DNA of 64,000 nt, from the NCBI GenBank assembly GCA_021734905.1, contig JAIPIB010000003.1, forward strand, positions 1,334 to 65,333, written 5' to 3'. A model generated the notes under the pieces. The model ran no database searches. It saw only the letters and a list, made by a program, of their open reading frames with translations, and was not told the DNA's origin. This document shows positions 31,578 through 62,652 of this stretch, piece by piece. Both the position numbers and the translations under genes were made by a program. Origin of the DNA: Minisyncoccota bacterium (GTDB lineage Bacteria > Patescibacteriota > Minisyncoccia > Phycocordibacterales > UBA918). The stretch's first letter is position 1; each line of letters begins with the position of its first letter.

Positions 31578-31585
31578 CAGTTAGT

Positions 31586-31651
31586 AAAAATCCGCAACAA
31601 GCGGATTTTTGCGTTACTGCTGCAACGACAGAACAGTCTGGGAGACTGTTC
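31586..31651 (+). terminator. two consecutive perfect stem-loops after tRNA-Gln
   Basis: AAAAATCCGC-AACAA-GCGGATTTTT (31586-31610) and GAACAGTCT-GGG-AGACTGTTC (31631-31651). Confidence 0.6.
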
Positions 31652-31840
31652 GAAAGGGCTCGAAGACCTTGCCAGATATTTTATGACGTAAGGAAATAAA
31701 ATATCGACAAGATATACTACCTATGTAATGGGAGAGACCTTTTGTCAGGCAGCAATGCATAGAAATTACGAAATTTCTGTTTCATACTCACAACTCTGTA
31801 CGATGTAGGCTTCTTCATCTTATTAATTTGATATACTTTT

Positions 31841-57583: not shown

Positions 57584-57713
57584 GCCGGGATGGCGGAATT
57601 GGTATACCGTGAATCAGTGCCCCGCACTGATTCACCAACTCAAAATCGTGTATCGAAAGGTTTGAGGGCTGAAACAATATGGGGTATTGTTTCAGGAGGT
57701 TGTCGAGATTTTA
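57584..57713 (+). other. degenerate partial copy of tRNA-Leu (5' two-thirds) interrupted by two perfect 27-nt hairpins, ending in conserved AGGAGGTTGTCGAGATTT
   Basis: GCCGGGATGGCGGAATTGGTATAC matches tRNA-Leu positions 1-24 (21/24); AACTCAAAATCGTGT matches the anticodon loop region; AAGGTTTGAGGG matches variable/T-stem; hairpins at 57609-57635 and 57669-57695; no 3' acceptor complement found. Confidence 0.7.
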
Positions 57714-57730
57714 TTATTCGTGTTCATAGT

Positions 57731-57812
57731 GCTGGAGTGGCGGAATTGGTATACGCGCGCGACTCAAAATCGCGTTCCGCAAGGATTGAGGGTTCAAGTC
57801 CCTCCTCCAGCA
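57731..57812 (+). tRNA. tRNA-Leu (anticodon CAA), type II
   Basis: acceptor GCTGGAG/CTCCAGC, D-arm GCGGAATTGGTATACGC, anticodon stem CGCGA/TCGCG with loop CTCAAAA, 13-nt variable arm, T-arm GAGGG-TTCAAGT-CCCTC, discriminator A. Confidence 0.85.
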
Positions 57813-57963
57813 CTGTGAACGAGAATTAAAAAAAATTATACAACCTGAACAGAATTCGTAGAATTCAAGTCCCTCTCCCGGCACAGCGCTTCTTAACTAA
57901 GTATCTATCCCTGAATACAAAAAACCCGTCGTAAAGTACGGGTTTTTCGTACTGCGACGGATT

Positions 57964-59710: not shown

Positions 59711-59772
59711 CCCGCAGAGGTAAAAGAAAAAGAGCATGCAAATGCATGCTCTTTTTCTTTTACCTCTGCGGG
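59711..59772. terminator. 62-nt perfect palindrome (29-bp arms) abutting and overlapping the 3' end of tRNA-Trp; bidirectional terminator candidate between miaA and tRNA-Trp
   Basis: CCCGCAGAGGTAAAAGAAAAAGAGCATGC-AAAT-GCATGCTCTTTTTCTTTTACCTCTGCGGG; last 4 nt overlap the tRNA acceptor 3' end. Confidence 0.7.
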
Positions 59773-59839
59773 CCCACGTGGAATCGAACCACGGCCACTG
59801 GTTTTGGAGACCAGCATTCTACCTCTAAACTATAGGCCC
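59769..59839 (-). tRNA. tRNA-Trp (anticodon CCA)
   Basis: minus-strand cloverleaf: acceptor GGGCCTA/TGGGCCC, anticodon stem CTGGT/ACCAG with loop CTCCAAA, T-arm CGTGG-TTCGATT-CCACG, discriminator G. Confidence 0.8.
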
Positions 59840-60744: not shown

Positions 60745-60836
60745 ACTCACCATCTTATCATGTTCCTTTGTAACACTTTTACTAAACAGTGAATTGTGGT
60801 ACTTTATAACCTGTCTCTCGGGACATTCAGATACAT

Positions 60837-60893
60837 GCGTCGGTGGCAGAGTGAGAAAGTCTGGTAGACTTTCGCAAGAGGTTGTCGATATTT
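60837..60893 (+). other. 17-nt exact copy of the tRNA-Tyr 5' end followed by a hairpin and conserved AAGAGGTTGTCGATATTT, ~140 nt upstream of tRNA-Tyr
   Basis: GCGTCGGTGGCAGAGTG identical to tRNA-Tyr positions 1-17; hairpin GAAAGTCT-GGT-AGACTTTC (60855-60873); motif shared with the tRNA-Leu upstream element. Confidence 0.7.
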
Positions 60894-60993
60894 CGTTGAG
60901 AAATATCATACAATCTGAACAGCGCCTGTAAGGCGGTAACGAAGTCAAATGCCTGTTATAATCAAAGCGTCTTTGATGACAGGTCAACATAAT

Positions 60994-61076
60994 GCGTCGG
61001 TGGCAGAGTGGTCAATTGCAGGAGACTGTAAATCTCCCGGATTTATCCTACGCAGGTTCAAATCCTGCCCGGCGCA
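60994..61076 (+). tRNA. tRNA-Tyr (anticodon GTA), type II
   Basis: acceptor GCGTCGG/CCGGCGC, anticodon stem GGAGA/TCTCC with loop CTGTAAA, long variable arm, T-arm GCAGG-TTCAAAT-CCTGC, discriminator A. Confidence 0.85.
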
Positions 61077-61085
61077 CATTTTAAG

Positions 61086-61106
61086 GCACCCCATTTGGGT
61101 GCTTTT
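61086..61106 (+). terminator. stem-loop plus T-run immediately after tRNA-Tyr
   Basis: GCACCC-CATTT-GGGTGC-TTTT. Confidence 0.5.
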
Positions 61107-61226
61107 AAAATGTGTGACAGGAGGAAGACACTCAATGTGTCTTCCGTCAGGATTTGAAAAGGTTGCCAGCGATTTTGAAGAATGAAAAATCGTGGCAACC
61201 TGTACCGGTCATGTAATGACCAAAAT

Positions 61227-61242
61227 TCCTGCCCGGCGCACA
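61227..61242 (+). repeat. 16-nt direct repeat of the tRNA-Tyr 3' end (att-like)
   Basis: TCCTGCCCGGCGCACA occurs at 61063-61078 (tRNA 3' end) and again at 61227-61242; the intervening ~150 nt contains three hairpins. Confidence 0.8.
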
Positions 61243-61246
61243 AAAC

Positions 61247-61276
61247 TTGACAATACGCCATTTTCAGTGCAATATA
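61247..61276 (+). promoter_or_regulatory. sigma70-like promoter for the 77-aa ORF
   Basis: TTGACA-N17-CAATAT(A) immediately after the att-like repeat; strong GAGGAG RBS before the ATG at 61314. Confidence 0.5.
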
Positions 61277-61313: not shown

Positions 61314-61547
61314 ATGAATACTGCCACTGAGGAACTGTTCCAGATGGACACTTTGCAAGCAAAGCTCATGCAAGAATCCATGCGGGATCTTCAAATCACA
61401 AGTGGTGATGTTGGAAAGGTATTTGTCTTGAGAAACGGAGAGCAGGCCGGTGAGATAATTACTCGCGAATCTTTCGCCACCATCCCCGTCTTCGAAATAC
61501 ATGCGTGGGTTGTAGTCAGCGAATTTGACATTAATACGTTGGACTAA
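61314..61547 (+). CDS. small hypothetical protein (77 aa)
   Basis: good promoter, GAGGAG RBS, and strong downstream terminator. Confidence 0.5.
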   Translation: MNTATEELFQMDTLQAKLMQESMRDLQITSGDVGKVFVLRNGEQAGEIITRESFATIPVFEIHAWVVVSEFDINTLD

Positions 61548-61859: not shown

Positions 61860-62426
61860 TCACAGATACTTTAGTCGAAGTCCTTCATTTTTTAAGTCAC
61901 ACAATGAATCGTATATGTCATGCATTACAACCCGCAACATCCGAAAATGTGTAAAGTTGTGTGCCACACACCCGTCTGCAATGAAGTTGTGCTCACCCTG
62001 TGTATACAGGTTAAACACTGGTTCAGTTGTTCCGGTTGGCGCAATACTCTTGATACAAGAATGTGCCGCTTTTGACGAACTGATGCGCATGATGCTGTCA
62101 CCTGGACTGAGCTTTTTAATCGACTGATATCCTTTATCAGTCATAAAGCTATGGCCCAAAGTACAGATCATTCCAACATCATCTGATTCAAAAGTTACAT
62201 TGACCAGTGGTGCTGGTTCGTGAACCAACTTGCGAGTGATTCGTCTTGGGACCAAAATGCCCTTTTTGTATGACAGAACCATTTCCCCTTCGGACAAATC
62301 TCCGATAGGAATTTTGCCACTCGGTGTTTCTATAAGTGTAGACTTGGGGAAACAATCCCAAGAATATTCAATACCTCTGGTACCTGCGCCTGGCAAATCA
62401 TTATCTACGTCAGAGTGCTTACCCAT
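61860..62426 (-). CDS. free-standing Hint/mini-intein-like (bacterial intein-like) domain protein
   Basis: block A CFPKSTLIETPSGKIPIGDL after a 24-aa leader; block B TLGHSFMT; blocks F/G EPVFNLYTQGEHNFIADGCVAHN; 31-aa tail after the HN beginning with Phe, not Cys/Ser/Thr. Confidence 0.7.
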   Translation of the reverse strand: MGKHSDVDNDLPGAGTRGIEYSWDCFPKSTLIETPSGKIPIGDLSEGEMVLSYKKGILVPRRITRKLVHEPAPLVNVTFESDDVGMICTLGHSFMTDKGYQSIKKLSPGDSIMRISSSKAAHSCIKSIAPTGTTEPVFNLYTQGEHNFIADGCVAHNFTHFRMLRVVMHDIYDSLCDLKNEGLRLKYL

Positions 62427-62652
62427 GATTGTTTCCTTTCAAAGAACAGTCTAGACCGTTTTATGAAGCCGGTCAAAACGCTTCACGATGAAACAGAAAC
62501 ATTTCTATCTCACCGATAGTTTGACAATACCACTTTTTACTGTTTTGTCAAAATACTATCAGCTCATTTTATTAAAAATATATTGTAGAAATTCAGTGTA
62601 TTTTCTTTCTATATAAATCTAATCTATCGGTCAAGATCGATCTTCAACCAAC

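Follow-up and report, generated by a model that had tools for sequence, protein, structure and literature searches.

tRNA genes are the classic landing sites for mobile DNA but always, as far as is described, through kb-scale elements that bring an integrase. In the tRNA-gene-targeting integrative elements and genomic islands of tyrosine integrases (Reiter 1989, Williams 2002 and Islander, as summarised in PMC9897764), an insert of 9-120 kb regenerates an intact tRNA and leaves a partial tRNA copy at its far end. The breakpoints fall in the stem-loops (T-loop, anticodon loop) that classically serve as core sites, and the repeat runs slightly past the tRNA end. Tycheposons of Prochlorococcus (bioRxiv 10.1101/2020.12.28.424599) carry a tRNA-specific tyrosine recombinase plus replication genes and kb-scale cargo; tandem elements are separated only by partial tRNA copies, degenerate remnants persist, the tRNA-proximal zone is hypervariable in hosts with streamlined genomes, and newcomers are modelled as inserting next to the tRNA and pushing older elements away. 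Integron arrays (IntI, attI, attC) consist of co-oriented cassettes in variable order, some of them ORF-less, that are bounded by imperfect-palindrome sites and inserted at the proximal site. CTXphi-type IMEX elements use a folded single-stranded attP with host XerCD.

The locus described here lies in a 64,000-nt stretch of DNA (the window) from a Minisyncoccota bacterium (GCA_021734905.1, contig JAIPIB010000003.1, positions 1,334 to 65,333). An intact tRNA-Tyr(GTA) gene was identified on the forward strand at 60994-61076/77 (ARAGORN; Rfam 58 bits). The original prediction was that a 16-nt repeat of the tRNA 3' end, about 150 nt downstream, is the att-like signature of integrase-mediated insertion, enclosing a mini-element or remnant with three hairpins and no ORF, or marking the left end of nested or tandem insertions in an island that may continue beyond the window. 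The observation itself is confirmed. The 16-mer TCCTGCCCGGCGCACA has exactly two matches in the window even when two mismatches are allowed, at 61063-78 (the last 16 nt of the gene) and 61227-42, whereas shuffled sequences are expected to give 0.01 matches and none of 100 shuffles gave two. The repeat extends to 19 nt with 18 identical (61060-78 and 61224-42), and covers the end of the T-loop, the T-stem 3' strand, the acceptor 3' strand, the discriminator and two trailer bases. A chance repeat or assembly artefact, for which nothing speaks beyond the short length of the repeat, is effectively ruled out, since the sequence is identical in two independent Logan assemblies (the contig of the second starts exactly 30 nt after the repeat) and the same architecture appears in GTDB MAGs and in JGI/ENA contigs made with different assemblers.

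The 148-nt insert contains the three hairpins as predicted (61086-106, 61123-45 and 61160-201) and a fourth at 61207-221 (GGTCA-TGTAA-TGACC). Only two weak open frames overlap it, a 78-aa frame at 60949-61185 (+) that reads through the tRNA itself and a 67-aa frame at 61058-61261 (-), and neither was called as a gene on the public contig. Hairpin 1 (61086-61106) is terminator-like (GGCACCC/GGGTGC followed by a T run) and is the centre of a 54-nt imperfect palindrome (61068-61121) that includes the acceptor 3' strand of the tRNA. It is followed by a degenerate antisense copy of the acceptor 3' strand plus discriminator and two trailer bases (61111-61121, TGTGTGACAGG; 9 of 11 pairs), and by hairpin 2 (61123-61145), which has a 9-bp stem and a tip sequence, CTCAATG, shared with modules at two related loci, L132 and L040 (L numbers designate the sampled loci of related tRNA genes). 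The segment 61148-61233 is a conserved module core comprising an antisense T-loop/T-stem CAGGATTTGAA (61148-58), hairpin 3 (61160-201), GTAC (61203-06) and hairpin 4 (61207-21). The antisense copies at 61111-21 and 61148-58, which the original prediction missed, allow the insert to pair either with the 3' third of the tRNA itself or with the distal repeat.

Also missed was a counterpart on the other side of the gene. The first 17 nt of the tRNA plus two leader bases, ATGCGTCGGTGGCAGAGTG, are repeated 157 nt upstream at 60835-60853 (positions -2 to 17, ending in the D-loop) with 19 of 19 identical; 36 nt match at 78% identity, the weaker similarity continuing to 60870. The intervening upstream unit, termed type A (60854-60993), has hairpins at 60852-76 and 60887-907, a TGTAA-loop hairpin (stem 60923-26 / 60932-35), a decayed T-loop/T-stem copy GTCAAATGCCTG (60944-55) and an extended -10 box TGTTATAAT (60954-62) that probably serves the tRNA. 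By visual comparison, it is homologous to the first upstream unit of L026.

On the distal side, a promoter-like motif CTTGACAATAC (61246-61275, +) directly abuts the repeat, and precedes a 77-aa ORF (61314-61547, +). This ORF has no Pfam hit and no homologue other than itself among 5.8 billion proteins; it is a possible cassette gene, but as an orphan it is uninformative on whether it is a widespread one. The public contig (75 kb) extends 9.7 kb beyond the window and holds PadR, a sugar transferase, ClpB, an IscS-like gene, IF-2, RbfA and two tRNAs, the genes being housekeeping ones, with no third copy of the repeat at up to three mismatches. None of the Pfam hits recorded on the contig is a recombinase, although about 20 of its genes have no hit on record. 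The two outcomes that had been named in advance as counting against an integrase-bounded island are largely borne out: no further repeat or integrase was detected in the available sequence (61 kb upstream and 12.7 kb downstream), and in relatives the repeat is part of a conserved structured tRNA-trailer module. The interpretation is only partly supported. This is a genuine duplication of the tRNA 3' end of the kind made when inserted DNA regenerates the end and displaces the old one, and the enclosed 148 nt is an ORF-less mini-element, but an integrase-mediated island running past the window end is not supported.

The insert belongs to a conserved, covarying, ORF-less module family. The core alignment comprises 17 sequences from Tyr, Trp, Leu-CAA, Leu-TAA and Val contexts; 94% of its cells are paired, against 65% in shuffles and 25-52% when partners are slid, and 15 of 18 pairs show compensatory changes. 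A covariance model, R1, gives 48 hits, of which 39 lie on the same strand within 700 nt downstream of a tRNA (Tyr, Trp, Gln and four Leu types), usually starting 50-80 nt after the tRNA end, and each module ends in the 3' end of its own tRNA. The window core scores 75.5 bits (E = 4e-12), and is 75% identical to a module behind a tRNA-Trp (L025) and 72% to one behind a tRNA-Leu (L041); its identity to modules behind Trp and Leu genes ranges from 67 to 75%, against 49% on average and 58% at most for shuffled sequence. A second module family (GGGGTCG..GTGAC) ends at T55|C56 followed by the 3' end of each tRNA. The TGTAA hairpin was considered as a copy of the Tyr anticodon arm, but this was rejected since the same hairpin precedes the 3' copies of Trp, Leu and Val genes. 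No known RNA family was found, as only tRNA reaches threshold in Rfam 15 in the window and in module-bearing loci.

Two further loci in the window are informative. A second family member (31579-31754, +) lies behind tRNA-Gln (31507-78), with a terminator palindrome, a perfect antisense T-arm AAGGGCTCGAA (31654-64), an R1 core (31654-745, 55.5 bits) and a decayed 3' copy (31734-54). At 57584-57885 (+), a tRNA-Leu(CAA) is nested, such that an older gene copy (57584-668, acceptor GCCGGGA) is split after its T-stem 5' strand by a 195-nt insert (57669-863) holding the functional tRNA (57731-813, acceptor GCTGGAG/CTCCAGC), and resumes at 57864-85 (TTCAAGTCCCTC + TCCCGGC). The outer 5' and 3' pieces pair with each other at 7 of 7 positions, but with the inner gene at only 5-6 of 7. 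Attempts to generalise this pairing test to other loci found only this tRNA-Leu to be informative.

The repeat is one instance of a lineage-wide, two-sided phenomenon, and the duplications have a strict polarity across related CPR bacteria. Among 70 related tRNAs, the 5' half is repeated upstream in 11 and downstream in 0, and the 3' half is repeated downstream in 21 and upstream in 0 (exact matches of at least 14 nt). Among 277 tRNAs there are 32 and 22 exact 16-mers on the correct side and 0 on the wrong side, all within 641 nt. Of 209 non-redundant tRNAs, 62 (30%) show self-homology in their flanks, with sharp steps at position 16/17 and at 55-60, such that 5' copies break at the D-loop and 3' copies start at the T-loop. 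The loci were sampled around Tyr, Trp and Leu genes, so the range of tRNA types is biased. The distribution is patchy, with a 3' copy at 13 and a 5' copy at 9 of 75 tRNA-Tyr genes.

Close relatives differ by whole units. L099 equals L119 plus a 181-nt unit immediately after the tRNA, with 98% identical flanks, although gain versus loss cannot be polarised for this pair, and units occur in different orders in L053 and L099. Arrays reach three units. In L099 the displaced copy keeps CCGACGC, the functional allele of L119, and in L147 the displaced copy has a different T-stem from the tRNA. In L132 (at least seven cassettes) and L160, the same tRNA-end-like boundaries, followed by the same promoter motif, separate cassettes whose ORFs are orphans. 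The 3' side of tRNA-Tyr is hypervariable and non-syntenic in relatives, while the upstream pilin gene is conserved.

No tyrosine-recombinase signature occurs in 1.18 Mb around the 277 tRNAs, and no kb-scale islands bounded by tRNA-end repeats were found within roughly +/-7 kb of each locus. A screen for a recurrent neighbouring enzyme family returned only syntenic housekeeping genes (pilin, ParB, ClpB, MiaA, RelA/SpoT). Beyond the contig, the screens were limited to a signature pattern and neighbour clustering, neither of which would find a novel or serine recombinase. Viral contigs were scanned for attP. The 16-mer has 18 viral hits, one in a phage tRNA-Arg and 17 inside long open frames with no extension beyond the 16-mer, most in high-GC contigs, a number that by a rough estimate is about what chance would give in a collection of this size; the boundary-plus-promoter motif and two module motifs gave no hits. 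No autonomous parent and no circular form was seen.

Compared with integrase-type elements, the tRNA locus has the direct repeat with one intact tRNA and the T-loop breakpoint, but the inserts are 50-200 nt, with no called gene in the window insert and no integrase detected. One conserved core serves many tRNA identities, about 30% of the sampled tRNAs are affected, and 5'-end copies broken at the D-loop, an atypical class, are as common as 3' copies. As in tycheposons, tandem modules are separated by partial tRNA copies (L099, L132 and L160) beside a hypervariable proximal zone, but no hallmark gene was found and the units are miniature structured DNA or single orphan ORFs with their own promoter. 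Relative to integrons, no intI was found, the cassettes carry their own promoters instead of a common one, and the platform is a tRNA gene; imperfect palindromes with an extrahelical hairpin are present, but are tRNA-derived and, as far as they were inspected, do not match the R/L-box attC consensus. The resemblance to IMEX elements is an analogy only: an element-borne inverted repeat could fold into a duplex mimicking the chromosomal target, allowing a tiny element with no recombinase of its own to integrate, but the target would be tRNA loops and not dif. Non-autonomous att-flanked elements (CIMEs) and MITEs offer a parallel as short, gene-less units presumably mobilised in trans; however, CIMEs are kb-sized remnants of ICEs, and MITEs have terminal inverted repeats and short target duplications of fixed length, whereas here the flanking repeats are 11-40 nt, variable in length and specific to each tRNA. 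No prior description of such an insertion mode at tRNA genes was found in the literature searched.

The explanation considered best, held with no more than even confidence, is serial insertion of short cassettes that regenerate the tRNA end. In this view, the 16-nt repeat is the outer boundary of a roughly 165-nt, ORF-less, strongly structured cassette whose position corresponds to an insertion in the T-loop; it supplies its own copy of the tRNA 3' third and a terminator hairpin, so that the gene stays intact, and the previous 3' third is pushed downstream, where it survives as the 16-19-nt copy. An empty site would join the tRNA-Tyr end directly to AAACTTGACAAT. The cassette belongs to a family found in the same place behind many different tRNA genes of Paceibacteria-type CPR bacteria, with a counterpart class upstream. 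Units would pile up in tandem, the extra unit lying next to the tRNA in the one array where a recent gain may be seen, and where the same boundaries separate promoter-bearing orphan-gene cassettes, tRNA flanks would become hypervariable cassette arrays. The analysis establishes the duplications and their absolute polarity, the loop-position breakpoints, the covarying core shared across tRNA identities, the unit-sized presence/absence between close relatives, the displaced copies that keep an older allele, and the absence of any detected recombinase in cis. That the units are, or were, mobile is inferred, as is insertion by an unidentified recombinase acting in trans at the near-universal T-loop and D-loop sequences. 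Such a recombinase may act on folded single strands, because the sense-hairpin-antisense palindrome of each unit rebuilds a duplex copy of the tRNA end; a 150-180-bp double-stranded circle is physically awkward, and a folded single-strand route would be needed, which is pure inference. Hairpin covariation is equally expected for a functional RNA or for palindromes kept by templated repair, and the evidence from nesting rests on one clearly informative locus.

Three other explanations were weighed, each of which appears unlikely. A classical att scar, in which a phage or island integrated at the tRNA-Tyr 3' end by a tyrosine integrase and the 148 nt are its deleted remnant or the left edge of an island whose integrase lies beyond the window, accords with a repeat that starts in the T-loop and runs 2 nt past the tRNA end, as in classical attL/attR pairs (Williams 2002 as cited in PMC9897764), with the documented accretion of degenerate elements and partial tRNAs in tycheposons, and with the non-syntenic or orphan downstream genes. 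However, no third copy at up to three mismatches and no recombinase Pfam hit is on record in the 12.7 kb downstream or 61 kb upstream, the 277 related tRNAs show no tyrosine-integrase signature and no kb-scale repeat pair, and no viral attP was found; the same 90-nt core lies behind at least eight tRNA identities at a fixed offset, which random deletion remnants would not produce, and 5' copies upstream are equally common.

Alternatively, the units may be functional structured RNAs, either tRNA leader/trailer domains or separate tRNA-like RNAs with roles such as processing control, decoy or sensor, whose helices must match the ends of the tRNA and whose repeats are kept by selection and are not a result of insertion. 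The strong covariation and conserved loops (TGTAA, CTCAATG), the fixed distance and strand, and antisense segments that track the sequence of the functional tRNA are consistent with this, as are the two mutually exclusive, very stable folds, which resemble a switch and of which the second is cloverleaf-like with an acceptor-type stem ending in the cognate discriminator. The patchy distribution, whole-unit differences between close relatives, tandem repetition in different orders, many decayed or interrupted copies, a core placed after a terminator-like hairpin with a T run, the lack of an Rfam match and the occupation of the same position by several unrelated module families argue against it. 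Local replication or repair artefacts, with selection on the tRNA leaving only outward-facing copies, could arise by hairpin-driven template switching and slipped-strand duplication; the palindromes are what quasi-palindrome correction would build around a terminator, no enzyme was found, and short direct repeats allow unequal crossing-over that could reorder units. This does not explain a shared non-tRNA core of about 90 nt behind at least eight tRNA identities in many species, displaced copies with a different allele from the functional gene, or orphan-gene cassettes bounded by the same sequences. Simple tandem duplication was rejected because the sequence next to the copies does not continue the native flank, only 2 nt matching in the window and 38 nt in L025.

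A more far-reaching possibility, which remains speculative and is considered less likely than not, is that these are a previously unrecognised class of miniature tRNA-loop-targeting cassettes in CPR bacteria, 50-200 nt long and with no enzyme of their own, each carrying a palindromic copy of a tRNA end that folds into a duplex mimic of its target. They would insert at the universal T-loop or D-loop through a host or trans-acting recombinase, in the manner of integron attC or CTXphi attP, and together with promoter-bearing orphan-gene cassettes would build integron-like arrays on tRNA genes, a route of gene gain in organisms thought to have very few mobile elements. Whether mobile or not, the partial tRNA copies will confuse tRNA annotation and island-finding tools in these genomes. 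If the units are functional RNAs, they are a new family of tRNA-matched leader/trailer structures. If instead they are mobile, they would give a concrete handle for finding the enzyme, and reveal a minimal insertion system and a source of genome plasticity in ultra-reduced symbiotic bacteria.

An intact tRNA-Tyr(GTA) gene is located at 60994-61076/77 of the window, as identified by ARAGORN and supported by a score of 58 bits against Rfam. The 16-mer TCCTGCCCGGCGCACA occurs exactly twice in the 64 kb, at 61063-78 and 61227-42, even when two mismatches are allowed. Shuffled sequences predict 0.01 matches, and none of 100 shuffles gave two copies. The repeat extends to 19 nt with 18 identical positions, and covers the end of the T-loop, the 3' strands of the T-stem and acceptor stem, the discriminator and two trailer bases. 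The three hairpins described in the original prediction are present at the positions indicated, with a fourth at 61207-221, and no gene was called in the insert on the public contig. Thus, the predicted duplication of the tRNA 3' end is confirmed. It is also extended, since a counterpart on the other side of the gene had been overlooked: the first 17 nt of the tRNA plus two leader bases are repeated with 19/19 identity 157 nt upstream, at 60835-53. The overall layout is therefore a 5' fragment, 157 nt, the full tRNA, 164 nt, and a 3' fragment.

The possibility that the repeat is an integrase scar at the edge of an island, as originally proposed, was examined on the public contig (Logan SRR12088351, 75 kb), which runs 9.7 kb past the end of the window. 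This additional stretch contains PadR, a sugar transferase, three hypothetical genes, ClpB, an IscS-like gene, IF-2, RbfA and two tRNAs, and no third copy of the 16-mer at up to 3 mismatches. None of the precomputed Pfam hits on the contig corresponds to a recombinase, although about 20 genes have no hit on record. The 16-mer has 18 matches in viral contigs, of which one lies in a phage tRNA-Arg, while the other 17 sit inside long open frames, do not extend beyond 16 nt and were treated as chance matches. A further repeat copy and an integrase gene had been set as the test of the island reading, which fails by this criterion within the sequence available. The proposed interpretation is therefore supported in part: the repeat is att-like and encloses a mini-element, but its reading as the boundary of an integrase island is not supported. 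In a second sample, contig SRR12088350_37445 begins at window position 61273, exactly 30 nt after the last base of the repeat copy, which would be k-1 if the assembly used k = 31. This start fits an assembly-graph branch at the cassette boundary, and hints at strain-level heterogeneity there.

The organism is a Patescibacteria (Paceibacteria or 'Pacebacteria') MAG, and the closest species representative has a MiaA that is only 65% identical. In 32 syntenic loci from related genomes, many tRNA genes (Tyr, Trp, Leu, Cys) carry exact copies of their own ends in their flanks, and each copy matches its own species-specific tRNA sequence. The arrangement is lineage-wide and strictly polar. Of 70 tRNAs with full flanks, the 5' half recurs upstream in 11 and downstream in 0, whereas the 3' half recurs downstream in 21 and upstream in 0 (exact matches of at least 14 nt). 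A scan of metagenome contigs anchored only on the tRNA-Tyr 5' sequence gave 108 unique loci; of the 75 with both flanks, 9 have a 5' copy upstream and 13 have a 3' copy downstream, none has a copy on the wrong side, and most have neither. Over all 277 tRNAs (1.18 Mb), there are 32 and 22 exact 16-mers on the correct side and none on the wrong side, all within 641 nt. A sensitive self-comparison of 209 non-redundant tRNAs found flank homology in 62 (30%). The upstream homology covers positions 1-16 and drops at 17 (the D-loop), while the downstream homology is absent before about position 28 and rises steeply at 55-60 (the T-loop). T4SS-pilin-like genes are by far the commonest neighbors of these tRNAs (178 copies in 91 loci, among loci L021-L172), often as tandem paralogues just upstream of tRNA-Tyr, a link to a DNA-uptake or secretion pilus that may or may not be meaningful.

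The 148-nt insert is a member of a conserved, structured family. The tRNA is followed by a terminator-like hairpin, an antisense copy of the acceptor 3' strand, a second hairpin and an antisense copy of the T-loop/T-stem. Next come a long hairpin closed by AAGGTTGCC/GGCAACCT, the sequence GTAC, a 5-bp hairpin with a TGTAA loop and, finally, the sense 3' copy. This order recurs in relatives, in which antisense acceptor copies lie downstream in 28 of 73 tRNAs, against 6 of 70 in the upstream control, and antisense T copies lie downstream in 22 of 73, against 3 of 70. The TGTAA hairpin is not a copy of the Tyr anticodon arm, since it also precedes the 3' copies of Trp, Leu-CAA, Leu-TAA and Val genes, and its 3' arm is the start of the copied T-loop. 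An alignment of 17 cores from five tRNA identities contains 18 base pairs, with 94% of cells paired (65% in shuffles, and 25-52% when the partners are slid) and with compensatory changes in 15 pairs.

The covariance model built from this alignment scores the insert of the window at 75.5 bits (E = 4e-12) and finds 48 members in about 1.1 Mb. Of these, 39 lie on the same strand within 700 nt downstream of a tRNA (Tyr 20, Leu-CAA 10, Trp 7, Leu-TAA 2, Leu-TAG 2, Leu-CAG 1, Gln 1), usually starting 50-80 nt after the tRNA end. The core in the window is 75% identical to a module behind a tRNA-Trp and 72% identical to one behind a tRNA-Leu, compared with 49% on average and 58% at most for shuffled sequence. 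The tRNA-Gln of the window also carries a family member, being followed at 31579-31754 by the same trailer module (core at 31654-745, 55.5 bits) with a perfect antisense T-arm and a decayed 3' copy. This module was missed by the exact-match screens, so the 30% frequency is probably an underestimate. At least one other module family (GGGGTCG..GTGAC) occupies the same position, ending precisely at T55|C56 and followed by the 3' end of each neighboring tRNA. No Rfam family matches any of these modules.

Upstream units of a second kind ('type B') follow the same design, with a sense 5' copy, a perfect hairpin of about 15 bp whose stem differs between species, and a degenerate antisense copy (z from -4.3 to -7.1). 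The same sense-hairpin-antisense theme is seen at 59711-59772 of the window, where an unusually long perfect palindrome of 30 bp with a 2-nt loop directly abuts, and overlaps by about 5 nt, the 3' end of tRNA-Trp (minus strand, 59768-59839), taking in the last acceptor bases. In three related loci (L022, -198 to -1; L025, -234 to -1; and L115), copies upstream of tRNA-Tyr reach tRNA position 36/37 and are followed by a homologous insert of about 100 nt (GAGTCGCCCNCCGGCGACAC...), after which TAAATC.. resumes. This arrangement resembles an intron-like insertion in the anticodon loop of a pseudo-copy. In L025, the duplicated block is 75 nt at 100% identity and includes 38 nt of upstream flank.

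Comparison of related loci provides evidence for insertion and turnover. Locus L099 equals locus L119 plus one 181-nt unit placed directly after the tRNA, with flanks that are 98% identical, and units occur in different orders in locus L053 and L099. The inserted DNA brings its own tRNA segment. In L099, the functional acceptor strand is CCGGCGC, while the displaced copy keeps CCGACGC, which is the functional allele of L119. In locus L147, whose tRNA is identical to that of the window, a homologous module ends in a copy with a different T-stem. In the window, the functional tRNA-Leu(CAA) is nested inside the T-loop of an older, diverged copy of the same gene (57584-57885). The older copy (57584-668, acceptor GCCGGGA) runs through the D-arm, anticodon loop and variable arm to the T-stem 5' strand, and carries a 30-nt hairpin insert between its D-arm and anticodon arm. 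It is then interrupted by 195 nt that contain the functional gene (acceptor GCTGGAG/CTCCAGC), and resumes at 57864 with TTCAAGTCCCTC + TCCCGGC. The two outer acceptor strands pair with each other at 7 of 7 positions, but with the inner strands at only 5-6 of 7.

In locus L132, which is syntenic with the window (pilin gene, then tRNA-Tyr), the tRNA is followed by at least seven co-oriented cassettes of 0.4-1.7 kb. Each of these ends in a variant of the tRNA-Tyr 3' third, followed by the promoter and palindrome CTTGACAATACACTA..TAGTGTATTG. A module of the same type as in the window, with the same boundary, lies 2 kb out, and locus L160 is similar. The repeat in the window is also followed by this motif (61246) and then by a 77-aa ORF. 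The conserved promoter with a palindrome heads each small-gene cassette (window 61246-61275 and 62520-62560; L132 5910, 6931, 7980, 9711, 10374 and 10783; L160 700, 1243 and 2984), and a variant (TTTGACAATACCAC) lies between the Hint and PspC genes of the window. It looks like a shared operator, so one regulator may control all the cassettes. The cassette ORFs are orphans with essentially no Pfam hits, and the 77-aa ORF matches only itself among 5.8 billion proteins. The 77-aa, Hint and PspC genes of the window have no counterparts downstream of tRNA-Tyr elsewhere, whereas the upstream pilin gene is syntenic in dozens of loci. The Hint gene (61860-62426, minus strand), next to the cassette zone, encodes a stand-alone 188-aa protein with Hint_2 (N-terminal) and Intein_splicing (C-terminal) hits but no host extein. 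It looks like a free-standing Hint or mini-intein-like gene, with no homologue in the other loci.

No enzyme that could account for insertion was found. A tyrosine-recombinase signature that matches XerD and lambda Int control peptides gave no genuine match in 1.18 Mb, and clustering of neighboring ORFs showed only syntenic housekeeping families, although these screens would not detect a novel or serine recombinase. Additionally, no kb-scale element is bounded by the repeats within roughly 7 kb on either side at each locus, and no viral contig carries the boundary or the module motifs.

The best-supported reading is serial insertion of short cassettes, at the T-loop on the 3' side and at the D-loop or anticodon loop on the 5' side, that carry a replacement tRNA end (plus a terminator or promoter) and displace the old end. 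While the duplications themselves are observed directly, the mechanistic steps of this model are inferred. Rival explanations are a functional leader/trailer or tRNA-like RNA, local template-switch duplication without mobility, and a classical deleted prophage. The logic of the model is that of attP/attB integration and of tRNA-proximal accretion, as described for tycheposons and for classical islands, but in miniature and without an integrase in cis; no prior description of such a system was found in the literature searched.

Folding supports two alternative pairings, either of the tRNA 3' third with the antisense segments (DNA fold, z = -10.4) or of the antisense segments with the distal repeat (RNA fold, z = -7.9). 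Because each unit holds a sense-hairpin-antisense palindrome, a folded single strand could present a duplex copy of the target, as integron attC sites and the CTXphi attP do, which would avoid the problem of forming a 150-bp double-stranded circle. Moreover, because the T-loop and D-loop are nearly universal sequences, one trans-acting system could serve many tRNAs.
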